Assembly (NCBI GenBank): GCA_963702895.1
Contig: OY969767.1
Span: 2,418,398-2,482,397, forward strand
Reading direction: 5' to 3'
Length of the DNA: 64,000 nucleotides
Source of the DNA: an uncultured Elusimicrobia bacterium
GTDB taxonomy: Bacteria > Elusimicrobiota > Elusimicrobia > 2-01-FULL-59-12
Shown in pieces: positions 8,872 to 59,472 of the stretch. Position 1 is the stretch's first letter; each line of letters begins with the position of its first letter. The position numbers were made by a program, and so were the translations under genes. Below the pieces are notes generated by a model that had not been told where the DNA came from, made no database searches, and worked only from the letters and a program-made list of their open reading frames with translations.

Positions 8872-8953
8872 CGTCACCCCGGCGGCCGCCAGCCGGGGTC
8901 TATCAGACGTACAAAACCTGATGGATCCCCTGCTTACTACCGCAGGGGATGAC
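8872..8953. repeat. Composite palindromic (REP-like) element cluster, two hairpin units
   Basis: GTCACCCCGGC-N8-GCCGGGGTCTATCAGACG followed by GATGGATCCCCTGC-N8-GCAGGGGATGACGG. The same flank motifs recur at several other sites in the window. Confidence 0.5.
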
Positions 8954-8994
8954 GGCACTAAAAAGTGCACTGGGTTCAGACGGAGAGAATTGGC

Positions 8995-10157
8995 CAACTG
9001 CAGCGTAATATGAAAGCGGGCCTCAAGAGAGTTATAAACAAGGCTGTCGGTAAAGACACCTTAATAACCCCAGGAGGCCCAAAATCATGATATCCATCGG
9101 CATTGATCATCACAAGAAGTATTGTCAGGTTGTGGCTATGAGGGAGTCTGGCGAGATTGTATGGGAAGGTCAAGTCCCCACACGGCGAGAAGGTCTTGCA
9201 CAAGTTAAAGAGGCGATTCCTCCAGGAGAACCGGTGCAAAGTGTATTGGAATCTGGACGGAGCTGGGGCATTGCCTATGACATTCTGGAAGATCTCGGGA
9301 TGAATCCGGTGTTGGCCAATCCTTATAGATCACGATTGATCGCCGACTCGTTTATCAAAACAGACAAAATCGATGCAACGGCACATGCCCTGCTGCTACG
9401 TTTGGGGGTGACCCCAACAATCCACGTGCCGAGTCGAGATCGGCGGGAACAGAAAGCGCTATTGCGGCACCGACTATGGCTAGTGAAGGGACAAACGGTG
9501 ATCAAGAATCGAGTTCATGATTTACTCGACCGACTTCATGTTGACGTTCCCGAACGAAGCGACTTGTTTGGAGCGCATGGCCGGGCGTGGCTGAAGGCTT
9601 TGGAGCTTCCGGAGATGCACCAGCATTTATTGAGATCCCACATGGCATTGCTCGATGAGATTCGCGTCCAAATTCGAGCGACAGAAGAATGGATTGATCG
9701 GGTTTTAAGGGATCACCCTTTGCGCGAGCTTGTCGATTCATTTCCTGGGGTCGGCAAGATCTTAAGTGCTCTGATGGCCTTGGAAATTGACACCATTGAA
9801 CGGTTTCCGACGGCTGCGCGGTTTGCATCGTACTGTGGCGTGGTGTGTAGTACCTACAGTTCAGGGGGTAAGACGTATCACGGAGGATTGATCCCGTCTT
9901 GTAACCGCTATTTACGCTACGCATTAATCGAGGCCTGTTGGACGGCTGTATCTGTATCACCGTACTTTAAAGCCTTTTATCAGCAACGAAGAATTCGAAA
10001 GCTGTCATCGGTCGCTATTGTGGCAGTGGCCAGAAAGATGGCAGAGATCATGTGGGTATGCCTGAAGAACAAGAGGAAGTATAAGGAAAAGATGTATCGA
10101 TTTGGTCGAGTCGCCTTGGCGAAATCTTAACGGAAGCCGCGTTTAACTGCAGCGTAA
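8995..10157 (+). mobile_element. IS110-family insertion sequence (approximate boundaries)
   Basis: Contains a DEDD-type IS110 transposase ORF. Region is flanked by a 13-bp direct repeat AACTGCAGCGTAA (about 8995-9007 and 10145-10157), lacks obvious terminal inverted repeats as is typical for IS110, and is lower in GC than its surroundings. Confidence 0.6.
9087..10130 (+). CDS. IS110-family transposase
   Basis: N-terminal ISIGIDHHKK (GIDxxK-type DEDD start) and C-terminal block FPGVGKILSALMALEIDTIERFPTAARFASYCGVV..SGGK typical of IS110/IS1111 transposases. Confidence 0.85.
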   Translation: MISIGIDHHKKYCQVVAMRESGEIVWEGQVPTRREGLAQVKEAIPPGEPVQSVLESGRSWGIAYDILEDLGMNPVLANPYRSRLIADSFIKTDKIDATAHALLLRLGVTPTIHVPSRDRREQKALLRHRLWLVKGQTVIKNRVHDLLDRLHVDVPERSDLFGAHGRAWLKALELPEMHQHLLRSHMALLDEIRVQIRATEEWIDRVLRDHPLRELVDSFPGVGKILSALMALEIDTIERFPTAARFASYCGVVCSTYSSGGKTYHGGLIPSCNRYLRYALIEACWTAVSVSPYFKAFYQQRRIRKLSSVAIVAVARKMAEIMWVCLKNKRKYKEKMYRFGRVALAKS

Positions 10158-32067: not shown

Positions 32068-32079
32068 ACCCAAATGTTC

Positions 32080-32205
32080 GTCACCCCGGCGGATTGTTAG
32101 CCGGCCCTCCAGACGCCCGGCGGGCCGTCCGCCCTGCCGTGTGGCGGACGGAGTCTATCATCGACGAAAAAGACATGATGGATCCCGGCTTTCGCCGGGA
32201 TGACG
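32080..32205. repeat. Composite palindromic (REP-like) element cluster, three hairpins
   Basis: GTCACCCCGGCGG...; CCGTCCGCC-N9-GGCGGACGG; GATGGATCCCGGC-TTTC-GCCGGGATGACGG. Same flank motifs as the 8872-8953 cluster. Confidence 0.5.
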
Positions 32206-32300
32206 GCATAGTAGAGTTTGCTTATTACGGACGATAACACCGTTTCATTCGACAATTTTCGGGTTAATACGTCTATTAGGTTAGAGAGGCAAAGGAACGA

Positions 32301-36589: not shown

Positions 36590-37075
36590 CTCCCGGACCT
36601 GGGCGCCGCACGACCGGCGCTCGCCCGACTATAGTGTGTCGGGTGAACCTAGACGAAGTGCAAAACTCCCGGACTAGGATTCGAGCGCCACACTTCGGGC
36701 GCTCGCCCGACTGTTGTGTGTCGGGTGAACCTAGACGAAGTGCAAAACTCCCGGACTAGGATTCGAGCGCCACACTTCGGGCGCTCGCCCGACTGTTGTG
36801 TGTCGGGTGAACCTAGACGAAGTGCAAAACTCCCGGACTAGGATTCGAGCGCCACACTTCGGGCGCTCGCCCGACTGTTGTGTGTCGGGCGAACCTAGAC
36901 GAAGTGCAAAACTCCCGGACTAGGATTCGAGCGCCACACTTCGGGCGCTCGCCCGACTGTTGTGTGTCGGGCGAACCTAGACGAAGTGCAAAACTCCCGG
37001 ACTAGGATTCGAGCGCCACACTTCGGGCGCTCGCCCGACTGTTGTGTGTCGGGCGAACCTAGACGAAGTGCAAAA
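36590..37075 (-). repeat. Tandem array of six head-to-tail ~82-bp units (five 82-bp plus one degenerate 76-bp distal copy), each a tRNA-Gln 3'-end copy with a two-hairpin insert
   Basis: The motif CAAAACTCCCGGACTAGG recurs at a strict 82-bp period (36661, 36743, 36825, 36907, 36989, 37071). Units contain two perfect 7-bp hairpins, GCCCGAC-N8-GTCGGGC and GAGCGCC-N8-GGCGCTC. No unique spacers. Confidence 0.85.
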
Positions 37076-37146
37076 CTCCCGGACTAGGATTCGAACCTAG
37101 ACTAAGGGATTCAGAGTCCCTCGTGCTACCGTTACACAATCCGGGA
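37076..37146 (-). tRNA. tRNA-Gln (anticodon CUG), 71 nt, CCA not encoded
   Basis: Manual cloverleaf: acceptor TCCCGGA/TCCGGGA with U1-A72 and G73 discriminator (both typical of bacterial tRNA-Gln); D-arm GTGT-AACGGTA-GCAC; anticodon arm AGGGA-CTCTGAA-TCCCT (CUG at about 37112-37114 on the minus strand); T-arm CTAGG-TTCGAAT-CCTAG. Confidence 0.8.
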
Positions 37147-37330
37147 GTTTTGCACTCCATATGCCAGAGTCCCTCGTGCTACCTAACCTTTATCCTTCGA
37201 CTCCGCACGCCCTGAGCGCAATCGAAGGACTCGTTCCGCTTAGGATGGTTCGGCTCGTATCACTGATGGTGAGCGAGGTCGCCAAACATCTGGCGACCGA
37301 GTCGAACCAGACCCTCCGAAAGCATGACTC

Positions 37331-37849
37331 TTATGGTTTGATGATTTCCGGTCCTTTGCTCACGCCGGGCGGGATGATTATATCAGGGCCTTTTTTCTCC
37401 GTCGCCTTTTCGGCGGACGCCTCGGACTTGCGGACTTCGTCAGCAAAGTTGAGCTCCAGGTCGGACACCAGGTTGTCGAGCATCTCCTGTTCTTTGACGC
37501 TCAAGTTTCCTTCCGTCTTTTCCTGAAGCATGCGCAAGAACTCAATCGAGATGCGGGCCTGATCGATGTCCTTTTCGATCTTCTGGGTCACCGGATGGGG
37601 CACTTTCCCCAGCTGCGCCCAGGCGGCAGACCCCAAGGACATCACCAGCGTCAAAAACCGGTAATCGTCCACAACGCTATCAGGCGGACGAGCGCCTGTT
37701 GTGTGGCGCTCGGCTTCTCCTGGCATTTCAATTTTTTCTTCTGACACAACCACCCTCCTTGCCGTCACCCCAGCGGATTGTGAGCCGGGGTCCATCGTTA
37801 TTGGCGTAGGCATGATGGATCCCCCACTTACAGCCGTGGGGGATGACAC
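37331..37849 (-). CDS. DUF1844-like protein; N-terminal region overlaps a palindromic repeat, so the true start may be internal
   Basis: C-terminal part (LTLVMSLGSAAWAQLGKVPHPVTQKIEKDIDQARISIEFLRMLQEKTEGNLSVKEQEMLDNLVSDLELNF) matches the small conserved family commonly encoded beside gltX. The N-terminal about 40 codons lie on palindromic-repeat sequence. Confidence 0.55.
   Translation of the reverse strand: MSSPTAVSGGSIMPTPITMDPGSQSAGVTARRVVVSEEKIEMPGEAERHTTGARPPDSVVDDYRFLTLVMSLGSAAWAQLGKVPHPVTQKIEKDIDQARISIEFLRMLQEKTEGNLSVKEQEMLDNLVSDLELNFADEVRKSEASAEKATEKKGPDIIIPPGVSKGPEIIKP
37762..37849. repeat. Palindromic element pair overlapping the 5' end of the DUF1844-like ORF
   Basis: CATGATGGATCCCCCA-CTTACAGCC-GTGGGGGATGACAC plus an adjacent GGACCCCGGCTCACAATCCGCTGGGGTGACGG unit. 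Near-identical to the element inside metH at about 47011-47127. Confidence 0.5.
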
Positions 37850-39432: not shown

Positions 39433-41820
39433 ATGACCATCACACCGCATTTTCGCCACTACCTGAGCCTCTTTTTGATGGCGATGAGCATCATTGTCTG
39501 GGAAATTTTGCTCACGCGCATCTACAGTGTGGTACTGTTCTACCATTTTGCGTTTATGGCTGTTTCGATTGCGATGTTTGGGCTCTCTATGGGCGCCGCT
39601 TGCGTCGCCCTGCAAAAAGTGGATCGTTCTTCAGAGTCTCCCCTGTCCGACCGTATGCTGGCAGCGCTCGGCCTGCTCACAGGGGTTCTCATGGTGCTGG
39701 CGATCACGTTGCAGTTAAGCTTGCCCATCCCGCCCACACGCAATCCGTGGCAGCTCTTTGGGGTACTTTTCCGAACGTACGTGCTTTCATCGCTTCCGTT
39801 TTTCCCGGCAGGGGCTTTTATATGTCTATTGCTTACGCGCTCCAAGCAAGTGGGACGGCTCTATGCTGTGGATTTGATCGCCGCAGGGCTTGGATGCGCG
39901 CTGATCCCCGTTCTTCTTTCAGTCTTCGGAGGCCCTGGGGCCACCCTGGTGGCAGCAGCGCTGGCCGGCGGTTCTGCTCTTTGTTTTCTCCCAAGGAAAT
40001 CACGCGCGTCCAGGGTGGCATGGCTTTTGGTCGTAGGGCTCTTGCTGGGGGCCTTGATCAACCGATCAGCCCAAGTCCTGCGCGTGCGTTGGCGGCACAA
40101 CGGCCCGGTTCCTATCCCTTTATTTGAAAAATGGAACTCCTTTTCGCGCATTATGATCCAGCCGGGCGGGTCCAGCAATCTGAATTGGGGAGTTGAAGAG
40201 ACCTGGAGACGTCAACTGACGCCGGCTCCTCAACTTCAGCTTGAAATTGACTCCGGGGCCGGGACCGCCATCACGCATTTTGACGGGAGACTGGAACCTC
40301 TTCGTTTTTTACAGTACGACATCACGTCGTTTGCTCATTACTTGCGGCCCCAATCCAAAGTGCTCATCATCGGGCCGGGCGGCGGCCGCGATGTGTTGGC
40401 GGCCTTAAGCTTCAAACAGGTCTCCGTGCATGCCGTTGAAGTCAACCCCTCTATTCTATACGCCGTCAATGACGTCTTCGGTGATTTCACGGGCCGCTTG
40501 AACAAACGCCCCGACGTTCACTTCGTGGTTGATGAAGGCCGGAGCTACTTACATCACGAACAACAACCCTTTGACATCATCCAAGCCTCCCTTGTGGATA
40601 CGGTGGCGGCCACGGCCTCTGGCGCCTATTCCTTTGTCGAAAACGGCCTCTACACCGTTGAAGCATGGCGGCTTTTTCTCCATCGGCTCACGCCGCGGGG
40701 CCTTCTGTCCTTTTCACGTTGGTATTTTGGGTCCACGACTTGGCCCGTGGAAGTGTGCCGCACGGTAGCGCTCGCCGCTGAAGCCCTCCGCCAGGAAAGC
40801 AAAAGACCTCAAGACCACATTCTGGTCATCCGCAACAGCAATTTGCGGCCGCCGAAAGAAGGCATCGCGACGGTCCTGGTCTCACGTGAACCCTTTTCAT
40901 CTTCGGACTGGGCCAAAGCTTTTGAAACATGCCGGCGGCTCCATTGCGAAATCGCTCTGGCCAAGGGACAAGGGGAACCTCTGCTCGCGTCCATCGTCGG
41001 GACCACCAACCCGCGCGCGCTGTACGCCGAACTTCCCTTGGACATCTCACCGCCCTCGGACAACAAACCTTATTTCTTTTTCCATGCAAGACTGCGGGAT
41101 ATTCTTCGGTTTCGTCAGAGCCCGCAATTCGGGGCCTCAGGCTTCAACTTGCCCGCCGTCCGCATTCTGGTCGAGTTAAGTTTGATTACGCTTGCTCTGT
41201 CCGCCCTCATGGTGGTTTGGCCCTACCGCATCCTAAGTCGCAGAACGTCTTGGGCGCCCGTGCCTGCTCGACGGTCTGTTGGGATGCCTTTCTATTTTGG
41301 ACTGATCGGTCTTGCTTTTATGTTCCTTGAAATTGGGTGGATGCAGCGCTTCAGCCTTTTCCTTGGTCACCCAACCTATGGGTTCACTGTGATATTGCTG
41401 GGACTTCTCGTCATGAGCGGTCTCGGGAGTTGGTGGGTCACTTCTACGAAGCTTTTGAGCGACCAATCGCGTCGGTGGATTCCATTGCTCCTCATTCCAC
41501 TTCTGCTCATCTCCAATAGGGTGGTCCAGATATTTTTGCCACAGTGGATGGGATCTCCCCTGGAGGTCCGCATTCTAATTACGCTGCTTTCGATCAGTCC
41601 TCCGGCGATCGTGATGGGCATGTTTTTCCCCCTGGCCATGGCGCCTGCTCAGCGCTGGATGGCGGACCGGGTAGGATGGCTATGGGCCATCAACGGCGCC
41701 CTGTCGGTGACAGGCTCCGTGCTCGCGATGGTTTGTTCGTTGGCGTTCGGCATCAGCGGGACTCTAATGCTGGGAACGGGCGCTTATTTCTTGGCTGCGA
41801 TCCTGCTTTTACTCCTCTAA
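39433..41820 (+). CDS. Membrane protein with central spermidine-synthase-like (SAM-dependent) domain flanked by transmembrane regions
   Basis: Multiple N- and C-terminal hydrophobic helices. Central VLIIGPGGGRDVLAALSFKQVSVHAVEVNPSILYAVNDVF ... FDIIQASL resembles the spermidine/spermine synthase fold. Confidence 0.7.
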   Translation: MTITPHFRHYLSLFLMAMSIIVWEILLTRIYSVVLFYHFAFMAVSIAMFGLSMGAACVALQKVDRSSESPLSDRMLAALGLLTGVLMVLAITLQLSLPIPPTRNPWQLFGVLFRTYVLSSLPFFPAGAFICLLLTRSKQVGRLYAVDLIAAGLGCALIPVLLSVFGGPGATLVAAALAGGSALCFLPRKSRASRVAWLLVVGLLLGALINRSAQVLRVRWRHNGPVPIPLFEKWNSFSRIMIQPGGSSNLNWGVEETWRRQLTPAPQLQLEIDSGAGTAITHFDGRLEPLRFLQYDITSFAHYLRPQSKVLIIGPGGGRDVLAALSFKQVSVHAVEVNPSILYAVNDVFGDFTGRLNKRPDVHFVVDEGRSYLHHEQQPFDIIQASLVDTVAATASGAYSFVENGLYTVEAWRLFLHRLTPRGLLSFSRWYFGSTTWPVEVCRTVALAAEALRQESKRPQDHILVIRNSNLRPPKEGIATVLVSREPFSSSDWAKAFETCRRLHCEIALAKGQGEPLLASIVGTTNPRALYAELPLDISPPSDNKPYFFFHARLRDILRFRQSPQFGASGFNLPAVRILVELSLITLALSALMVVWPYRILSRRTSWAPVPARRSVGMPFYFGLIGLAFMFLEIGWMQRFSLFLGHPTYGFTVILLGLLVMSGLGSWWVTSTKLLSDQSRRWIPLLLIPLLLISNRVVQIFLPQWMGSPLEVRILITLLSISPPAIVMGMFFPLAMAPAQRWMADRVGWLWAINGALSVTGSVLAMVCSLAFGISGTLMLGTGAYFLAAILLLLL

Positions 41821-44147
41821 GCCAATAATCCCCACGTGTGAAGGAGGTCCCCTTCATGCCGCCACCGGAACCCGATGTCGGTGCGGTAGAACATGTTGGG
41901 GATGATGATGGTTTTGACGCGGGAGTAGGCCTCGCGGTGGGCTTCTTCCATGGTGGACCCGGAACCGGTGATCACGAGCGCATACCCGTCGCGTCCCGTG
42001 ATCTTCCAGTCGCCGTCTTCGAGTTTGACGTCGCCAAGATGGATCCCGTCCATCCCAGGCTTGGTGAATATCACGACCGCGTCCTCGGAAAACTTGCGGA
42101 ACGTATCCAAGTCGGCAAAGGGCCAAGGAGGAAGCGCGATGACCACCCCCACCTGAAATCCTTTTTGTGTTTTGAGGTTATAGGGCTTTTTGTTAGCAAG
42201 CGCGTAGAGAAATTCTCCCCACGGGCTCTGGATGCCCTCCATTTGGATGCTGACCGTCGGGTAGCCAAAACGTGGGGTGATCTCCAAGGGGTAGACGTTG
42301 CGGGCCGTGGCGATGCAATTGATATCAAAATAACCCACGTAGCCTGCTTCTTTGAGGCGCGGCACCATTTTCTCGATCGTTTCGCGGTAGAGCCGGCTGG
42401 GTCCCGTCCAAAACATCGAGGTATTTCCACACCACAAAGGCTTTCCATTTCTCCTAACATAGAGCGTGTGATAAGGAACTGTGACACAGTAGACACGCCC
42501 TTTGTAATCAACCACGGTCGTATCTCTGCGGTCAAGCCACGCGTTTGTCTTTTGGATCCTTTCGATCACTTCGTAGCAGGGATGGACCTTTTGAAAGACT
42601 CTCGTTCCGATCTTGCCTCCACGACGTAAGCGCCGTTTGACGATTCCGACACGACCCATCTTGAGAAGCAGTTCTTGGACGTCGTCCGCTAATCGAGGAG
42701 AAGAGGTGTAGTAAATTCGAAAACCGGTGCGCTGTTTATTCCCGTCCCCTAAACACATATGGTCGAAGAGAATCGCTAATTGGCGAGGGGATTGCTCCTT
42801 GTATTCCGAGGGAATATATTTCGTGAGCGCGTGACCGAAAGGCTTAAGATACGCCCACAAGCGCTTGTCGTAGCATTTCCAGCCTCCTTTCACCTTTCTA
42901 AAACGGAATGGCAACCTTTCAATCGTCTCTTGAACGGCACGCGCCTTCCGGGCATTCACTTGAGAGATGCCGACCTGATAAGATTTCTCGGAAGTCCAGC
43001 CTTCCGCGAGCCAGAGCCCAAGGAATGCCAGCCAATGGTCCATCGCCATGAGCAAGGGCTGGAACTTGTCCCTGCTTAGGCCATGCCCAGAACGTCCTCT
43101 TAATGCAGGCAACGAAAACACGGCTTCTTCCTTGCCTTTCCAACAACCCGAGCGCGGCACCACAAATTGGTGGGGAAGATTTTTCGCTTTCACAAAGGTC
43201 CACTGTTTTTTCTTGCGATATCGCGTGGCTTCCTGGCCGAACATCTGGTGGTCGAGCGTCACAAGCAGATCGGTTGCTCGATTGCGAATACGGACCATTT
43301 TCTTGTGATGATCGAACTGAACAACAGCGGATGGTCTATGATATTCGATCTCATCGGACTCGGGGTTCACACTGGCAAAGCGATCCTCCAGAGAAACATC
43401 CCGAAATCTTTTCCAACCGCCCTGCGTAAGCACTTCCGTCTCCTCGTCATAACAGCCCATCTCTCCTGTAGAGGGGCCGATTTCACCGGCAAAGAGTTTC
43501 TTGTGCTCGAAGTTGATGCAGACGGGCATGATGAACTCTTGTCCATTGAAGAAACCACCGACCGCAACTTCAATACCTGAGACAAACTTTTGGATTTGCA
43601 GACGGCGCACTTTGGATCCCCAGCCGACTTTGTACCGGTCTAAAATCGCGACGACGTCTTTCCCGTCTTCTTCATGACCCACGAAAGAAAGGACTTTGTC
43701 GTTTTGCGCTTTGCCGGAGGGTTTCACCACGTAGCGGGCAGGATTTTTTATAACAAACTTGGTCGCTTCATCGAAGGAATCGAATTCCCAGGAGTCCGGG
43801 ATCGTGAGGCCCACGGCCTTCATCTCCTGAGCTCCGAAGTCGCGGTCAAGCTCCAAGCGATCTGAATAAGAAGATCCTCCGACCACGGGCTTGCCTTCTT
43901 TGCGCAGACGGTCCGCGATCGTCCCGAACGCGGCATCATCGATGATGATGAGGTCCGCCCAGTCTTTATGCGATTCCCATTCGTCCACTTTATCGAGAAA
44001 TCCATCATAGAGCACACGGTCGGCTTTGGACTGCACGAACCATTTGACGTTGTAGCCTTCGAGTTTGAGACGGTAAGCGAGGTCGCCCGCACAGGCCTCA
44101 AAGGAGAGGAAGAGAATATTTTTCGGTTTTCCGTTGCCGTTTGCCAT
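41817..44147 (-). CDS. Divergent PurD-like ATP-grasp ligase interrupted by an intein
   Basis: Extein matches the PurD family core (FEHKKLFAGEIGPSTGEMG; PLEITPRFGYP; C-terminal FYRTDIG) but lacks the canonical PurD N-terminal GGREHA motif. A 344-aa insertion sits between GEMG and TSMFW. Coordinates are from the ORF track; my hand reading of the printed sequence around 43440 and 44100 did not reproduce this frame exactly. Confidence 0.7.
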   Translation of the reverse strand: MANGNGKPKNILFLSFEACAGDLAYRLKLEGYNVKWFVQSKADRVLYDGFLDKVDEWESHKDWADLIIIDDAAFGTIADRLRKEGKPVVGGSSYSDRLELDRDFGAQEMKAVGLTIPDSWEFDSFDEATKFVIKNPARYVVKPSGKAQNDKVLSFVGHEEDGKDVVAILDRYKVGWGSKVRRLQIQKFVSGIEVAVGGFFNGQEFIMPVCINFEHKKLFAGEIGPSTGEMGCYDEETEVLTQGGWKRFRDVSLEDRFASVNPESDEIEYHRPSAVVQFDHHKKMVRIRNRATDLLVTLDHQMFGQEATRYRKKKQWTFVKAKNLPHQFVVPRSGCWKGKEEAVFSLPALRGRSGHGLSRDKFQPLLMAMDHWLAFLGLWLAEGWTSEKSYQVGISQVNARKARAVQETIERLPFRFRKVKGGWKCYDKRLWAYLKPFGHALTKYIPSEYKEQSPRQLAILFDHMCLGDGNKQRTGFRIYYTSSPRLADDVQELLLKMGRVGIVKRRLRRGGKIGTRVFQKVHPCYEVIERIQKTNAWLDRRDTTVVDYKGRVYCVTVPYHTLYVRRNGKPLWCGNTSMFWTGPSRLYRETIEKMVPRLKEAGYVGYFDINCIATARNVYPLEITPRFGYPTVSIQMEGIQSPWGEFLYALANKKPYNLKTQKGFQVGVVIALPPWPFADLDTFRKFSEDAVVIFTKPGMDGIHLGDVKLEDGDWKITGRDGYALVITGSGSTMEEAHREAYSRVKTIIIPNMFYRTDIGFRWRHEGDLLHTWGLLA
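42423..43454 (-). other. Putative intein with LAGLIDADG-like motifs inside the PurD-like gene (about 344 aa; boundaries approximate)
   Basis: Insertion begins with Cys (CYDEETEVLTQGG) right after the conserved GEMG loop and ends ...KPLWCGN followed by Thr+1. Internal motifs LGLWLAEGW and LFDHMCLGDGNK. The penultimate residue is Gly rather than the usual His. Confidence 0.6.
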
Positions 44148-44384: not shown

Positions 44385-45206
44385 ATGAGACGGCGAGCTT
44401 GGCTTTCCTTGCTTCTTTTGGGGTTCTGTGTGTTCAATTTGGCTCCGGGGTCAGAGGCCCGCGTGAAGATTTCGAAGCTTGCTGAGAAATTGGTTTACGG
44501 CGACCAGCCCACGAGGCTCGCCGGGATTGAAGAGTTCAACAAGCTGCCCGCGGAAGCCCAGCAAAAACTGGTACCTGATTTTATGGTCGCCATGAGCGAT
44601 GAAGATCCAGAGGCCCGCAAAATCGCCTCTCGCATCTTGAAAGCGATGGGTGTCCAAGCGGAAGCCCAGGTCCCAGACGCGAAAAAGGAGATCGCCTCAG
44701 AGAAGTCCAAGACCAAGCCCATCGACAAGTGGGAAGAAGAGAAACGCTTAAAACAGGAGGCGAGTCAGGATAAGTGGGCTGATTTAAGAAGCATGCGCTC
44801 GGAAGAGCAGGGGGGCTACGCCTCCATGAAGCAACAACTCGAAAGCGAAAAGAAGGGCCAGGTGTGGATCGATCCCTCCCAGCTCACCACCGAGGCCTTG
44901 GACAAGACCTCGCCTCTCGGTTCTGTGACCGAGGCTTTGCGTGACTCGGATCCGTGGGTGAGAGCACAGGCCGCGCGGCGCCTCGGCACGATCCGGCCCG
45001 CGCCCGTGGAAGCCATCCCCGACCTCATCGCGATGCTGGGTGAGAACATCCCGGAGTCGCGCCGCGCGGCGGCCGCTGCGCTCGGTTCCTTTGGGCCCCT
45101 GGCGGAAAAAGCGCTTCCTGCCCTCACAACGGCCCTCTCCGACCCTGACCCCGCCACGCGGCAGATCGCGCAAGAGGCGATTAAGCAGATTCAAATGCAC
45201 CCGTGA
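44385..45206 (+). CDS. Secreted HEAT-repeat protein
   Basis: Signal peptide; C-terminal HEAT-like repeats (DSDPWVRAQAARRLGTI; ESRRAAAAALGSFG; DPATRQIAQEAIKQI). Confidence 0.6.
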   Translation: MRRRAWLSLLLLGFCVFNLAPGSEARVKISKLAEKLVYGDQPTRLAGIEEFNKLPAEAQQKLVPDFMVAMSDEDPEARKIASRILKAMGVQAEAQVPDAKKEIASEKSKTKPIDKWEEEKRLKQEASQDKWADLRSMRSEEQGGYASMKQQLESEKKGQVWIDPSQLTTEALDKTSPLGSVTEALRDSDPWVRAQAARRLGTIRPAPVEAIPDLIAMLGENIPESRRAAAAALGSFGPLAEKALPALTTALSDPDPATRQIAQEAIKQIQMHP

Positions 45207-48200
45207 CCCGAGACGATTTCAACAAACTCCTTCGCGAACAGGTTCTCGTCTTCGACGGGGCTACAGGCACCAACCTTCAGCTCCACAATCCCACCCTGGA
45301 CGACTATGCCGGCATGGAAGGCTGCACCGAAATTCTTCTTGAAACACATCCGGAATGGATCGAGGAGCTTCACGCCTCCTTCTTTAAAGCGGGATGCCAG
45401 GTCGTGGAGACCAATTCTTTTGGGGCGAATCGTATCGTTTTCACCGAATACGGTCTTGAGGACCGGGTTCATGAGTTTAATGTCAAAGCGGCCCAGCTTG
45501 CTCGGAAAGTCGCCCATGCCTTCAGCGCCCAAGACAAACCCCGTTTTGTCGCGGGCTCCATGGGTCCTGGCACGAAGCTTCCTTCTCTTGGACACACCAC
45601 TTTCGACACACTGCGCCATAACTACCAGGAACAAGCTGAAGGTCTGATCGACGGGGGCGTGGACATCCTCCTGATCGAAACCTGCCAGGATATCCTACAG
45701 GCCAAAGCCGCCACGGTGGGCGTTCTGGACGCTCTTTCCCGCAAGAAGAAGGACCTCCCGATCATGGTGCAGGTCACCGTGGAGTCCACGGGGACTTTGC
45801 TCTTGGGGACCGAAATGGCGGCGGTCATCTCCGCTTTGGAGCCCTATCCCATCGCTTCCCTCGGCATGAACTGTGCGACGGGCCCCCAGGAGATGTCGGA
45901 ACACGTGCGGATCCTGTCCCAGCAGTGGGCCCGGCCTATTTCTGTTCTTCCCAACGCGGGTTTACCCGAAAACGTGGGCGGACGAGCAGTCTATCGGCTC
46001 ACTCCTCAGGAGCTGGCCGAGCATCTGAAAGATTTCGTCACCCGGTTCGGGATCAATATCGTAGGCGGCTGCTGTGGGACCACGCCCGCGCATCTGGCTG
46101 AAGTCGTGAAAGTCATGGAGAAGATCAAGCCTGTTCCGAGAAGCCTCTCAAGCACCCCGGCTTGTTCAAGCCTCTACCTTCAAGTGCCCTTCAAGCAGGA
46201 GCCGAGGCCTCTTATCATCGGTGAACGCACGAATGCCAACGGCTCCAAGAAATTTCGTGAGCTGCTCGCCAAGGATGACTTTGATGCGATCGCCGCCATG
46301 GGAAAAGAAGAGGTGAACGAGGGCGCTCACATGATCGACCTCTGCACAGCTTTTGTGGGCCGGGACGAGGTCCGTGACATGAAGGAATGTGTGAGCCGCA
46401 TGGCGCTCCAGGTGCGCCTGCCGCTCATGATTGACTCCACCGAGGCCCCCGTGATTGAAGAAGCTCTTAAACGTGCGGGCGGACGCTGTGTCATCAATTC
46501 CATCAACCTGGAAGATGGCGAAGAAAGAATGAAGGCGGTCTGCCCTCTGGCCAAGACTTATGGCGCAGCCCTGGTGGCGCTCACAATCGACGAGCAAGGC
46601 ATGGCCAAAACCCGGCAAAAGAAGCTCGCCATCGCCAAGCGCATTCACGATCTGGCCATCAAGCGCTTCGGTCTGCGACCGGAAGATTTGCTGTTCGACG
46701 CTTTGACGTTTACGCTCGGTTCGGGTGACGAGGATTTTCGCAAGGCAGGTCTCGAGACCATCGAGGCCATCCGCCTGATCAAAAAGGAGCTCCCCGGAGT
46801 CTTCACCGTACTGGGCGTTTCCAATATCTCGTTTGGTCTGGCACCCCAGATCCGCCAGGTGTTGAACTCGGTGTTTCTCCATTACGCCATTGAAGCCGGT
46901 CTCGACGCTGCCATTGTCCACGCACGCAAGATCCTGCCCCTCTACAAAATCGATGAGAAAGGACGGGAGCTCGCTCGTAAATTGATTTTTGATGATCGCA
47001 CACCCCTCTCGTCATCCCCCGCGGGTGTCAGCGGGGGATCCATCATGATGGACCCCGGGTCTCCAAACAACAGGCGACCCGGCCCGCCGGACGTGTGGAG
47101 GGCCGGCTTACAATCCGCCGGGGTGACGGCTTCTTTTGATCCTCTGACCGCGCTCATGGCGCACTATGCCGAAACCTCAGAGATCTCTGCGAAAGCGAAT
47201 AAGGAAGAACCCAAGACCATCGAAGAGCATCTCAAGGTCCGTATCATCGACGGGAATAAACAGGGCCTGGAGGGACTGCTCGATGAGGCGATGAAGAAGT
47301 GGGGTCCGCTCGAGATCATCAACACCATACTGCTTGACGGGATGCGGGTGGTGGGCGATTTGTTTGGTTCGGGCCAGATGCAGCTCCCCTTCGTTCTTCA
47401 GTCCGCGGAAACCATGAAAGTGGCGGTGCGTCATCTGGAGCCCTTCATGCCTAAGGCGGACGCTGGTGTTCATAAAGGGAAGCTCGTCCTTGCGACCGTC
47501 AAAGGGGACGTTCACGACATCGGGAAGAACCTCGTCGATATCATCCTCACGAACAACGGCTACAAGGTTTTCAATTTGGGCATCAAGATGTCGATCGATG
47601 AGATCCTCAAGGCTGCCGCGGAAAAGAAGGCCGATGCGATCGGGATGTCAGGCTTGCTCGTCAAATCGACGGCGGTCATGAAGGAAAACTTAGAGGAGAT
47701 GAATAAACGAGGCGTGCAAACGCCGGTCCTTTTGGGTGGGGCGGCTCTCACGCGCCGATTTGTGGAAGAAGATCTCCGGCAGCTCTACAAGGGCTATGTC
47801 TATTATGGGGTGGACGCTTTTGCGGGGCTTCGCATCATGGACGAGCTGACCAACCCTTCCAGAGAAAAGAAGTTGACCCTCTATGAGACGCGTGGCGGTT
47901 CGGGCCAAACCTTGAAAGCGGGAGACTTGCCCTCACCCCACCCCTCTCCCGCCTTCGGCGGGAGAGGGCGGTCGCCAGACGCCTGGCGACCGGGTGAGGG
48001 CACGCTCTATATCCCTCTATCCCCCTCTCCTTCTATTCCTCATCCGCCGTTCTGGGGCAGCCGGGTCGCGCGAGGAATCGCTTTAAAGGATGTCTTCCCC
48101 TATATCAACGAAACGGCCCTCCTCAAAGTGCGCTGGGGCTTTTCCAGGGGGCAAACAAGCGCCGAAGATTACGCGCAACTCCTTAAGGAAACCGTTGGGC

Positions 48201-48904
48201 CGCTCTTTCAGAAGTGGAAAAACTACTGCCTTAAGGAGCAGATACTGGTCCCGCAAGTGGTTTACGGTTATTTCCCTTGCCTGTCTGAAGGAGATGATGT
48301 GGTGGTGTATAGGCCGGAAGATTTGAAAAAGGAATGGGTGCGCTTTAAATTCCCGCGACAAAACACGACTCCGATGCGATGTATCAGTGACTTCTTTCTC
48401 CAAAAGCCGTCATCCCGGCATGCTGTAAGCCGGGATCCATCAGACGTGATGGATCCCCCGCTAAAGTCCGCGGGGGATGACAGAAAGAATTTTGACGTAT
48501 TAGGTTGCTTTGTCGTGACGGTCGGAACCCAGGCAAGCAACAAAGCGCATGCCCTCTTCAAGGAGAACTCCTACAGCGATTATCTCTACCTGCACGGGCT
48601 AAGCGTGGAAACGGCCGAAGCCTTAGCCGAGCACTGGCACCGCCGCATGCGTGAGGAGCTGAACATCCACCAGGAAGATCACCCGGAGGTGCGTGAATGG
48701 TTTCACCAGAAGTACCATGGCGGTCGCTACTCTTTTGGGTATCCCGCCTGCCCCAACCTGGAAGATCAAGCAAAGCTTTTTGAACTGCTGGATCCCCAAC
48801 GCATTGGCGTAGCGCTCTCCGAAGCGTTTCAGTTAGACCCTGAGCAAAGCACCTCCGCCATCGTCCTGCACCACCCCGAAGCCAAATACTTTAACGTCCA
48901 GTAA
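45203..48904 (+). CDS. metH: Cobalamin-dependent methionine synthase (Hcy-binding, pterin-binding, B12-binding and AdoMet-activation domains) carrying three in-frame palindromic insertions
   Basis: Single 1233-aa ORF with Hcy-domain start (VLVFDGATGTNLQ), GCCGTTPAHL, B12-binding region and C-terminal activation domain. Start overlaps the upstream stop. Confidence 0.9.
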   Translation: MTRDDFNKLLREQVLVFDGATGTNLQLHNPTLDDYAGMEGCTEILLETHPEWIEELHASFFKAGCQVVETNSFGANRIVFTEYGLEDRVHEFNVKAAQLARKVAHAFSAQDKPRFVAGSMGPGTKLPSLGHTTFDTLRHNYQEQAEGLIDGGVDILLIETCQDILQAKAATVGVLDALSRKKKDLPIMVQVTVESTGTLLLGTEMAAVISALEPYPIASLGMNCATGPQEMSEHVRILSQQWARPISVLPNAGLPENVGGRAVYRLTPQELAEHLKDFVTRFGINIVGGCCGTTPAHLAEVVKVMEKIKPVPRSLSSTPACSSLYLQVPFKQEPRPLIIGERTNANGSKKFRELLAKDDFDAIAAMGKEEVNEGAHMIDLCTAFVGRDEVRDMKECVSRMALQVRLPLMIDSTEAPVIEEALKRAGGRCVINSINLEDGEERMKAVCPLAKTYGAALVALTIDEQGMAKTRQKKLAIAKRIHDLAIKRFGLRPEDLLFDALTFTLGSGDEDFRKAGLETIEAIRLIKKELPGVFTVLGVSNISFGLAPQIRQVLNSVFLHYAIEAGLDAAIVHARKILPLYKIDEKGRELARKLIFDDRTPLSSSPAGVSGGSIMMDPGSPNNRRPGPPDVWRAGLQSAGVTASFDPLTALMAHYAETSEISAKANKEEPKTIEEHLKVRIIDGNKQGLEGLLDEAMKKWGPLEIINTILLDGMRVVGDLFGSGQMQLPFVLQSAETMKVAVRHLEPFMPKADAGVHKGKLVLATVKGDVHDIGKNLVDIILTNNGYKVFNLGIKMSIDEILKAAAEKKADAIGMSGLLVKSTAVMKENLEEMNKRGVQTPVLLGGAALTRRFVEEDLRQLYKGYVYYGVDAFAGLRIMDELTNPSREKKLTLYETRGGSGQTLKAGDLPSPHPSPAFGGRGRSPDAWRPGEGTLYIPLSPSPSIPHPPFWGSRVARGIALKDVFPYINETALLKVRWGFSRGQTSAEDYAQLLKETVGPLFQKWKNYCLKEQILVPQVVYGYFPCLSEGDDVVVYRPEDLKKEWVRFKFPRQNTTPMRCISDFFLQKPSSRHAVSRDPSDVMDPPLKSAGDDRKNFDVLGCFVVTVGTQASNKAHALFKENSYSDYLYLHGLSVETAEALAEHWHRRMREELNIHQEDHPEVREWFHQKYHGGRYSFGYPACPNLEDQAKLFELLDPQRIGVALSEAFQLDPEQSTSAIVLHHPEAKYFNVQ
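47011..47127. repeat. Palindromic element pair lying in frame inside metH
   Basis: GTCATCCCCCGCGGG-TGTCA-GCGGGGGATCCATCATGATGGACCCCGGG ... GGCTTACAATCCGCCGGGGTGACGG. Encodes SSSPAGVSGGSIMMDPGSPNNRRPGPPDVWRAGLQSAGVTA. Confidence 0.6.
47930..48000. repeat. Nested palindrome (CCCTCACC ... GGGTGAGGG family) lying in frame inside metH
   Basis: CCCTCACCCCACCCCTCTCCCGCC-TTCG-GGCGGGAGAGGGCGGTCGCCAG-ACGC-CTGGCGACCGGGTGAGGG: an outer stem enclosing two hairpins, followed by a CT-rich tract. Encodes PSPHPSPAFGGRGRSPDAWRPGEG. Confidence 0.6.
48409..48482. repeat. Two opposed palindromic units lying in frame inside metH
   Basis: GTCATCCCGGC-ATGCTGTAA-GCCGGGATCCATCAGACGTGATGGATCCCCCGC-TAAAGTCC-GCGGGGGATGACAG. 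Confidence 0.6.
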
Positions 48905-57901: not shown

Positions 57902-58606
57902 ATGATTTCGGCATTATTATTTGATTTTGGGGGCACCCTGGACTCCGATGGCGAGCATTGGCTTAACCGGTTCTATGCCATTTATCCCGATATAGGCTTA
58001 CCCGAAGTGCCTAAACCAAAGATTAAAGAGGCCTTTTACTGGGCTGATGAGCAGGCGAGTATCGACCCTGCCATGCGTCAGGCCGGTCTCAGACAAATGA
58101 CCGAGCTTCACGTCCGCTGGCAATTTCATAAACTGGGGCTCCATGACCGTCAGCTTGAAGTCGAAGCCGCGGCGGCCTTCTACAAACCGGCCAACCGAAT
58201 TCTTCGTCGTAATCGACACGTTCTAGAGAAATTAAAACACGCTGGTTTGAAACTCGGGATCCTCTCGAATTTTTATGGCAACATCGACACACTCTGCAGG
58301 GAATATTCCTTCTCCCCCCATTTGGACATCATCTTGGACTCGGCCGTGATCGGAATAAAAAAGCCTGACCCGAGGCTCTTTGCGCTTGCCTGCGAGCGGC
58401 TGAAGCTACCGGCCCATGAAATCGCTTTTGTCGGCGACTCCTTTGAGCGTGATATCGTCCCAGCGAAAATCCTTGGAATGAAGACGTTTTGGCTTGTTGG
58501 AGATCGCAAGCTCACACCCCCTGAGCCCGCCAAAGTGGACTGCATCCTTCGAAGCCTGGCGGACCTCCCCCATGATCTTGTCCCTCACCACAAAGATCCC
58601 AAATGA
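57902..58606 (+). CDS. HAD-superfamily hydrolase (phosphatase-like)
   Basis: N-terminal LLFDFGGTLD (DxD/G-type motif I) and distal FVGDSFERDI motif. Confidence 0.7.
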   Translation: MISALLFDFGGTLDSDGEHWLNRFYAIYPDIGLPEVPKPKIKEAFYWADEQASIDPAMRQAGLRQMTELHVRWQFHKLGLHDRQLEVEAAAAFYKPANRILRRNRHVLEKLKHAGLKLGILSNFYGNIDTLCREYSFSPHLDIILDSAVIGIKKPDPRLFALACERLKLPAHEIAFVGDSFERDIVPAKILGMKTFWLVGDRKLTPPEPAKVDCILRSLADLPHDLVPHHKDPK

Positions 58607-59472
58607 AGGCAGGCATCATCGCGGCGGGATGGGGCCAGAGACTAGCTCAGAACATCCCCAAAGCCCTGACGCCCATAGGACGGAGAGCTCTGATCGATTA
58701 CGCCCTCGACGGCTTGCAAGCCGCGGGGGCGAGCGAAGTGACCTGTATTGTCAACGAAGCCGCAAGGTCGGTCCCCGACTATGTGGCAAAAGCCAGTCGA
58801 AGAATCAAAATGGACTGGGTGATTCAAACGACACCTTCGTCGATGCACAGTTTTTTAATCGTGCTGGAGCATCTCGCGAATCAGCCCTCACCCCCAACCC
58901 TCTCCCGCGTGCACGCGGGAGAGGGCGAGGTCCGCAGGGCCGCGGGTGAGGGGAGCGAAGCCTTTTTGATTACCACGGTGGACTCGGTTGGTCCGCTTTC
59001 GATCTACAAGGATTTTGTCGAATCTTGCCAGCACTTCCCGGACGCGGATCTCTGCCTGGGGCTGACCCCCCATACCGACGACGAAAAACCCCTACGCGTG
59101 GCGATGCGCGGCAAGGAAGGAACAGGCCTGCTCCCGGAGCGCGTGGCGCAAGATCCCCCGGCCTTTGAGATCACGGCGATGAGCAGCAACGGATTCGAAA
59201 GCGAGTTCGTGACCGCCGGCCTCTACTGGGCTCATCCGCGCATTCTCCAAGAGAAGGAGAAGGTTCTCTCCGGCGGGCTCTCAGCGCTGCGGCAGTACTT
59301 CGGCTACCTGTTAAAATATGGTTATCGTTTCTACGGTGTGCCCCTGCCGCCAGTTCTGGACGTGGACCGGCCTCAGGACATCGCAAAGGCTGCAGAATGG
59401 GAACGCTCCGGGCTCGTGGCGCAAGCCACGGGCAGCGCCCAAGCGCCTCCAGCCGAAAGACGAGAGGGATGA
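58603..59472 (+). CDS. Nucleotidyltransferase (sugar/polyol-phosphate nucleotidyltransferase-like) carrying an in-frame palindromic insertion
   Basis: N-terminal GIIAAGWGQRLAQNIPKALTPIG nucleotide-binding signature. Start overlaps the upstream stop. Confidence 0.6.
   Translation: MKAGIIAAGWGQRLAQNIPKALTPIGRRALIDYALDGLQAAGASEVTCIVNEAARSVPDYVAKASRRIKMDWVIQTTPSSMHSFLIVLEHLANQPSPPTLSRVHAGEGEVRRAAGEGSEAFLITTVDSVGPLSIYKDFVESCQHFPDADLCLGLTPHTDDEKPLRVAMRGKEGTGLLPERVAQDPPAFEITAMSSNGFESEFVTAGLYWAHPRILQEKEKVLSGGLSALRQYFGYLLKYGYRFYGVPLPPVLDVDRPQDIAKAAEWERSGLVAQATGSAQAPPAERREG
58885..58950. repeat. Nested palindrome (CCCTCACC ... GGGTGAGGG family) lying in frame inside the nucleotidyltransferase gene
   Basis: CCCTCACCCCCAACCCTCTCCCGCG-TGCA-CGCGGGAGAGGGCG ... 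GCGGGTGAGGGG. Same family as the metH insert at 47930-48000. Confidence 0.55.

Follow-up and report, generated by a model that had tools for sequence, protein, structure and literature searches.

Palindromic repeats carried in frame by the metH gene of an uncultured Elusimicrobia bacterium

How a gene for a large enzyme can carry palindromic repeats and still be read through is the question raised by metH in a 64,000-nucleotide stretch of an uncultured Elusimicrobia bacterium (assembly GCA_963702895.1, contig OY969767.1, positions 2,418,398 to 2,482,397), which is referred to below as the window. The initial annotation had described three GC-rich palindromes inside this gene, and all three were found, in a single frame of 1233 codons that no stop interrupts (Table 1). 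We propose, with a probability of roughly 0.8, that they are non-autonomous palindromes which inserted in frame and were tolerated at linkers and loops of the protein.

MetH of the window contains the five MetH domains of Pfam in order, namely S-methyl_trans (residues 15-304), Pterin_bind (340-573), B12-binding_2 (674-746), B12-binding (759-876) and Met_synt_B12 (1009-1232). Among solved structures, the full-length Thermus MetH entries 8G3H and 8SSC are the closest to it. The protein was aligned with 18 relatives, which are 60-83% identical to it and typically 1148 aa long. The zinc-binding Cys, the DxHxxG cobalamin motif and the RxxxGY / RYSFGYPACP motif for S-adenosylmethionine are invariant columns of this alignment. 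Since all domains and motifs are kept in an open frame, the gene looks functional from its sequence. The closest relatives (77-83% identical over the aligned residues) are mostly 1148 aa long, and in the alignment the window protein is longer by about 42, 24 and 24 residues at the three places. These segments are missing in most of the 18 relatives, and the first has no counterpart in 15 of them. In a DNA alignment with three relatives (L108, L109 and L110; relatives and other sequences are cited by our labels), L110, the closest relative free of inserts, showed clean gaps at all three sites, and the third site is a clean gap of 72-75 nt in all three genes. On this comparison the three palindromes are lineage-specific insertions, and the alternative that they are conserved native sequence of MetH fails.

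Table 1. Positions of metH and of the palindromic elements in the window
Feature	Position	Strand	Type or structure	Protein or gene context
metH coding sequence	45203..48904	+	GTG start, intact; open reading frame (ORF) list and five MetH Pfam domains	1233 aa
Insertion 1	47010..47128		CGTC-REP head-to-head dimer with nested piece	~42 extra aa, residues ~601-644
Insertion 1, intact REP unit	47010..47042	+	tag CGTC, stem ATCCCCCG, loop CGGGTGTCAG, tail CCA (unit scan)	
Insertion 1, second REP unit	47046-47056 plus 47103-47128	minus orientation	3' stem split by nested piece	
Insertion 1, nested two-hairpin piece	47055..47102 (approx.)		46-48 nt; splits 3' stem of second REP unit	
Insertion 2	47929..48001	+	untagged double-hairpin palindrome, family 2	residues ~910-933, Cob:Act linker
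Insertion 3	48408..48482		CGTC-REP head-to-head dimer, units 48408-48439 (+) and 48450-48482 (-)	~24 aa, residues ~1069-1093
Single CGTC-REP hairpin	48908..48940		fold -24.1 kcal/mol, z -5.6	begins 4 nt past metH stop, between convergent genes
Second family-2 palindrome	58884..58954	+	in frame	NTP_transf_3 gene 58603..59472 (+), adds 22 aa
Intergenic CGTC-REP dimer	8872..8954			~130 nt upstream of IS110-family transposase ORF
Intergenic CGTC-REP dimer with nested piece	32079..32205			between convergent genes
CGTC-REP dimer	37763..37848			between gltX stop codon and DUF1844 Shine-Dalgarno/start

By their sequence, elements 1 and 3 of metH are head-to-head dimers of CGTC-tagged repetitive extragenic palindromic (REP) units. 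CGTC REPs (Di Nocera, De Gregorio and Rocco 2013, PMC3733652) have a CGTC tag with the variants TGTC and CCTC, stems of 8-9 bp with A-T at the first positions, a CCA-like tail and loops of 4-5 nt, with other lengths in some families. Most of them are head-to-head dimers, situated close to gene 3' ends in convergent or unidirectional arrangements, and a dedicated transposase is not known for them (PMC3733652). In the window the unit pattern GTCAYCCC-N12-20-GGGRT was found nine times against 0.11 expected, and none of 100 shuffles reached nine; the family is represented there by one single unit and by five dimers whose tags point outward. Every unit opens with CGTC or TGTC and continues into a hairpin, in which the two halves of an 8-bp stem that begins with A (ATCCCCCG, ATCCCGGC or ACCCCGGC) enclose a loop; the tail comes last. 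The stems pair with at most one mismatch, the first pair being always A-T and the second T-A or C-G. The tail is CCA in seven of the eight dimer units detected and CTA in the remaining one, and the single REP has none. The window elements share with the published ones the CGTC/TGTC tag, the stem starting with A, the CCA tail, the tags-outside dimers and the extragenic copies near 3' ends of ORFs. They differ in that one window dimer has a nested mosaic piece, and in their host, as Elusimicrobiota are not among the five phyla of that paper. The tag is CGTC and not GTAG, the mark of the GTAG REP/REPIN-RAYT class (a whole-window search for RAYT genes was not made). Hence the description of the metH palindromes as REP-type hairpins stands for elements 1 and 3, with the nested piece in element 1, but element 2 belongs to a different, untagged family.

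The nested piece of insertion 1 forms two small hairpins in RNA folding. It is also present, at the same position and in the same orientation, in the intergenic dimer 32079-32205 (at 32105-32153; 66 nt, 83% complementary), and its hairpin GGTCNCC..GGCGACC resembles, by eye, the second hairpin of element 2. It may mark a longer subfamily of the dimer, or it may be a separate piece directed to this position.

Element 1 had also been called almost identical to one at the 5' end of a DUF1844-like gene. This needs some qualification: the two REP arms are 89% and 93% complementary to the copy at 37763-37848 in inverted orientation, and element 1 differs from it by the nested piece and a shorter spacer. 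The copy begins 2 nt beyond the gltX stop codon. The mechanically called ORF 37331..37849 starts within the REP dimer and matches Pfam DUF1844 only from residue 63; the orthologues are 100-123 aa long and start at the place of the VSEEKIEM of the window; and an AGGAGG Shine-Dalgarno sequence stands immediately past the element on the DUF1844 side, 6 nt ahead of a GTG. The start of the domain, the lengths of the orthologues and the placement of AGGAGG suggest that this copy is most likely a REP in the gltX-DUF1844 spacer, and probably not a coding 5' gene end as had been assumed. The peptide theme shared by the two ORFs comes from one repeat read in an identical frame, but in the DUF1844 copy it is most likely noncoding. 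In annotation, N-terminal extensions like that of the DUF1844 ORF, and such low-complexity segments in conserved proteins, should be taken for repeat elements.

The three insertions are predicted to fold stably as RNA, with energies of -71.3, -67.4 and -44.1 kcal/mol and z scores of -4.3, -10.3 and -5.8 for insertions 1, 2 and 3, respectively; none of 200 shuffles folded as well. Insertion 2 consists of an outer stem, CCCTCACCC/GGGTGAGGG, around two hairpins. No Rfam family overlaps the elements. The lengths of the inserts are in effect multiples of three. Of the six frames of each element, two or three are broken by stops, which leaves only three or four open, and those in use are among the latter: SS(P/R)... 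in both metH REP dimers and PSP... in family 2. The predicted peptides include SSSPAGVSGGSIMMDPGSPNNR, SPDAWRPGEGTLYIPLSPSPSIPHPPFWGSR and DPSDVMDPPLK. The use of open frames fits a selection filter, and the elements need not be made for coding.

The second palindrome family was found in the window once more, again within a gene. The 22-aa segment that it adds to the NTP_transf_3 protein is gapped in the syntenic orthologue of L109, and the fold of this copy is -51.7 kcal/mol with a z score of -5.1. Both family-2 copies end in GGGGTGAG, which fits the 8-nt motif GGGGWSAS, a weak match at such a length. This motif has been quoted for repeats flanking RAYT-like (TIRYT, tyrosine transposase) genes (PMC3733652), and a tie of family 2 to the TIRYT-associated terminal inverted repeats is only a lead.

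The positions of the insertions were then compared with the structure of Thermus MetH. In chain 8G3H_A the site of insertion 1 is between residues 631 and 634, in the loop between the last helices of the Fol domain and about 15 residues ahead of Linker II (Lys649-Asp657), the Fol:Cap linker. Insertion 2 maps into Linker IV (Glu877-Ala897) of 8G3H. Both linkers lack electron density in the crystal and were described as mobile (PMC10567725). Insertion 3 lies within the activation domain. The loop that receives it is variable, and Thermus MetH carries a longer segment of its own there. An AlphaFold2 model covering residues 560-1233 had a mean pLDDT (predicted local distance difference test) of 72.9, with 80-94 in the folded domains, and the values dropped below 50 at the three inserts (residues 601-643, 893-933, 1071-1077 and 1081-1091). 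The earlier judgement that the segments lie in inter-domain or surface regions is therefore confirmed: two of the insertions are in or beside flexible linkers between domains, and the other occupies a loop that varies naturally. According to the model, the inserts would be translated into disordered loops.

The same three sites were occupied in several relatives. At site 1, L108 and L109 have a REP dimer and L114 a lone REP unit, all oriented alike and no more than a few nt from the place in the window, while the 15 other relatives share a short and uniform loop, ERK-EG-FDPL. In L109, site 2 carries a family-2-like element, and in L112 another palindrome. Site 3 is filled by unrelated palindromes in L111 and L112; in L113 it has a family-2 element. 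The palindrome of L111 has a perfect 14-bp stem (GGACTGAGGACTGAG...), and those of L112 are GGAGACACG-type repeats; both are in MetH sites 2/3. At least four unrelated families of palindromes occupy the three loops in related lineages, and the four lineages with a REP at site 1 are scattered in a neighbour-joining tree without support values. The unit scan detected no REP unit in 20 kb of L110, whose metH is insert-free, and five each in L108 and L109. These related carriers of palindromes in the same MetH loops are probably Elusimicrobiota. One relative, P0016 (encoded on a contig of assembly GCA_964604825.1), is 79% identical over ungapped columns, and the gene order around it is that of the window: DUF1844-gltX, metH, hisG, HAD-NTP_transf_3.

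The left REP unit at site 1 is the same in all 33 nt in the window and L109 and in 32 of 33 in L108, and it is also identical in L118. The metH genes of the window, L108 and L109 are 72-75% identical, with 42-47% identity at third codon positions. A constraint on this unit specific to metH was considered and rejected. A scan of metagenome contigs found exactly the same unit at the 3' flank of atpB and inside kdpA, so that it represents a conserved repeat subfamily of these genomes. The kdpA copy is part of an in-frame REP dimer (L116, ~9985-10016) from the same metagenome as L118, and the metH dimer of the L109 organism is nearly identical to the kdpA dimer.

To account for these observations, we propose that small non-autonomous palindromic repeats spread through the genome by means of some enzyme, and that three of them landed inside metH, each of them free of stops, keeping the frame and at a part of the protein that tolerates extra residues. 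Selection would act as a filter, so that intragenic copies are kept only if they are in frame, stop-free and at permissive loops, and the beads-on-a-string build of MetH with its long flexible linkers would supply such places. The same in-frame pattern was observed in other genes, namely NTP_transf_3 in the window and kdpA and a mutS-like gene in related genomes. Several points weigh against this explanation. The loops of the window units are 8-10 nt long and not the 4-5 nt published for CGTC REPs, except GAAA in the unit 32179-32205. Neither direct repeats nor a target-site duplication was seen at the six copies or between filled and empty metH sites. No transposase in the 64-kb window could be linked to the elements, and insertion by transposition is deduced from their distribution. 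The copy counts refer to the window only. Moreover, expression of the gene, translation of the inserts and a small effect on catalysis are what we infer.

Four other explanations were weighed against insertion and tolerance. The hairpins or peptides might be kept because they are useful, either as longer Fol:Cap and Cob:Act tethers or as mRNA structures that slow ribosomes or alter mRNA stability. Such a role would agree with the location of two of the three inserts at or beside two mobile linkers, with the filling of the same loops in several relatives, and with the near identity of the site-1 unit in three lineages despite their diverged third codon positions. However, exactly this unit stands at the unrelated atpB and kdpA loci, most relatives have no insert at all, and the different, unrelated palindromes in the same loops fit tolerance better than need; we consider usefulness unlikely. 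It is very improbable that metH is a decaying pseudogene or that the palindromes are artefacts of assembly. Palindromes are hard to sequence, and this sequence comes from one assembled contig of 2.72 Mb, but 1233 codons are open with every domain and motif kept, the inserts are effectively multiples of three, and related inserts are present in independent ENA, NCBI and JGI assemblies. Hardly credible, finally, is the idea that the segments belong to native MetH or are removed after transcription or translation in the manner of an intron or intein. A real intein-like insert does exist in a neighbouring gene, yet the metH segments are missing in orthologues, are copies of dispersed repeats, match no Rfam family and, at 24-42 aa and without splicing motifs, are too small for an intein.

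The fourth explanation concerns the choice of target: site 1 may have been hit independently in several lineages because the REP prefers it, in which case selection alone would be insufficient. This is possible, though we regard it as doubtful. In its favour, the site-1 REPs of the window, L108, L109 and L114 have the same orientation and lie a few nt apart, each carrier has closer relatives with the uniform empty site, and the likeness of the L109 metH dimer to the kdpA dimer suggests recent spread. On the other hand, the tree lacks support values, and one old insertion followed by losses and decay could give the same picture, L114 having only a monomer with changed stem bases. The flanks also differ, with distances of 4, 7, 7 and 10 nt from a conserved CGC codon, and no common target motif or duplication was seen. 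A broader form of the idea, suggested by the filling of the three loops by unrelated families and by the scattered site-1 REPs, in which CGTC REPs and their companion palindromes land non-randomly at a structural or sequence target such as hairpin-prone single-stranded DNA, is speculative and rather improbable. If true, it would make the filled and empty sites a set for working out the mechanism of CGTC-REP mobilisation.

Insertion and tolerance, as preferred here, has precedents. Intragenic CGTC REPs are known, with dimers that encode 20-30 aa, genes with two inserts and several inserts in uvrA of O. terrae, and such inserts have been suggested to sit in linkers or loops (PMC3733652); metH is not in the supplementary list of targets of that paper. 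The CGTC superfamily takes in Neisseria dRS3 (family CGTC-1) and the Rickettsia palindromic elements (RPEs) RPE-4 and RPE-6 (PMC3733652). The analogy to RPEs that had been drawn in the initial annotation is therefore apt, as the superfamily of elements 1 and 3 contains two of them; the link follows from that published assignment and not from a comparison of sequences. Like RPEs, the metH elements are palindromic repeats in frame in a conserved protein gene, at tolerated sites, and would be read as extra surface peptides, whereas the host lineage is another one and RPE-1 is longer and structurally unrelated. With Neisseria dRS3/NIME they share the mosaic of small hairpin modules, but these form large intergenic clusters in Neisseria and mostly isolated dimers, some intragenic, in the window. 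Miniature inverted-repeat transposable elements with in-frame fusions, such as QMITE of Coxiella (PMC5896051), are likewise small and non-autonomous, have inverted ends and can extend or alter proteins. Inverted ends are present on the family-1 elements with no target-site duplication beside them, and in contrast to QMITE the window copies are without flanking direct repeats and no parent insertion sequence with matching ends was seen.

A collection of genomes was scanned with the pattern TGATGGATCCC-N8-20-GGGATGAC, which was found at 107 or more loci. Among the 112 matches listed, 101 had three or more additional pairs of complementary bases in the stretch that the pattern leaves free, against 1.6% expected, and 64 had a partner unit upstream and were thus dimers. 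The matches listed include Alpha- and Gammaproteobacteria, metagenome-assembled genomes (MAGs) of Patescibacteria (Uhrbacteria, Parcubacteria), Elusimicrobiota and Nitrospirales, and others. Among them, the units most like those of the window, with 9-nt loops such as GGATTGTTG and TTACGACCT, were in an Elusimicrobiota MAG (L033, L055, L082 and L089). The mutS-like gene with an in-frame dimer is at L033. In-frame CGTC-REP dimers were seen as well in real-looking genes among L055, L016 and L056, for zinc-ribbon, membrane and Sphingomonadales proteins. Long read-through ORFs around REPs in the GC-rich L008, L020, L041 and L068 looked spurious and were left uncounted. The scan places REPs of the CGTC type in Elusimicrobiota, Nitrospirales and Patescibacteria, outside the phyla of the 2013 survey, with MAG contamination as a possible cause.

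The phenomenon itself is known from earlier descriptions of RPEs, GTAG REPs and CGTC REPs, and metH is a clear example of it, leaving the known behaviour of such elements unchanged. Of modest interest are that one enzyme has three inserts, that different families recur in its loops and that CGTC-type REPs occur in additional phyla. Close relatives offer filled and empty alleles of one large enzyme with inserts at flexible joints, and for MetH enzymology the sites mark positions where 24-42 residues can apparently be added.

Some observations on the other copies and on neighbouring sequences in the window may be added. The single hairpin behind metH was considered as a classical terminator and rejected, as a run of A and not of T follows it; it is also absent from the list of the terminator scan. 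An IS110-family ORF (DEDD_Tnp_IS110 and Transposase_20) lies at 9087-10130 (+), about 130 nt past an intact CGTC-REP dimer. Elements of the IS110/IS1111 group were reported to insert into REPs (PMC5896051, PMC8450116), and REP-containing copies were described as landing sites for IS1111/IS110 elements (PMC5896051). The transposase near 8872-8954, the one seen, is probably a guest and not the mobiliser. A spurious 52-aa ORF, 32097-32255 (-), reads VIPAKAGIH...PPGVWRAG wholly inside the intergenic REP dimer and illustrates the false small genes that such repeats generate.

Upstream of metH, a purD-like ATP-grasp gene (41817-44147, minus strand; GARS_A ... GARS_C) is split by a segment of ~300-400 aa that matches LAGLIDADG, which suggests an intein; its orthologue in L114 is 436 aa long. 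A tandem array at 36616-37094 has 5.8 copies of an 82-nt unit that are 99% identical, and it abuts and overlaps the 3' end of tRNA-Gln(CTG) (37075-37147, minus strand). The 82-nt unit holds a hairpin and the T-arm-like GGATTCGA.

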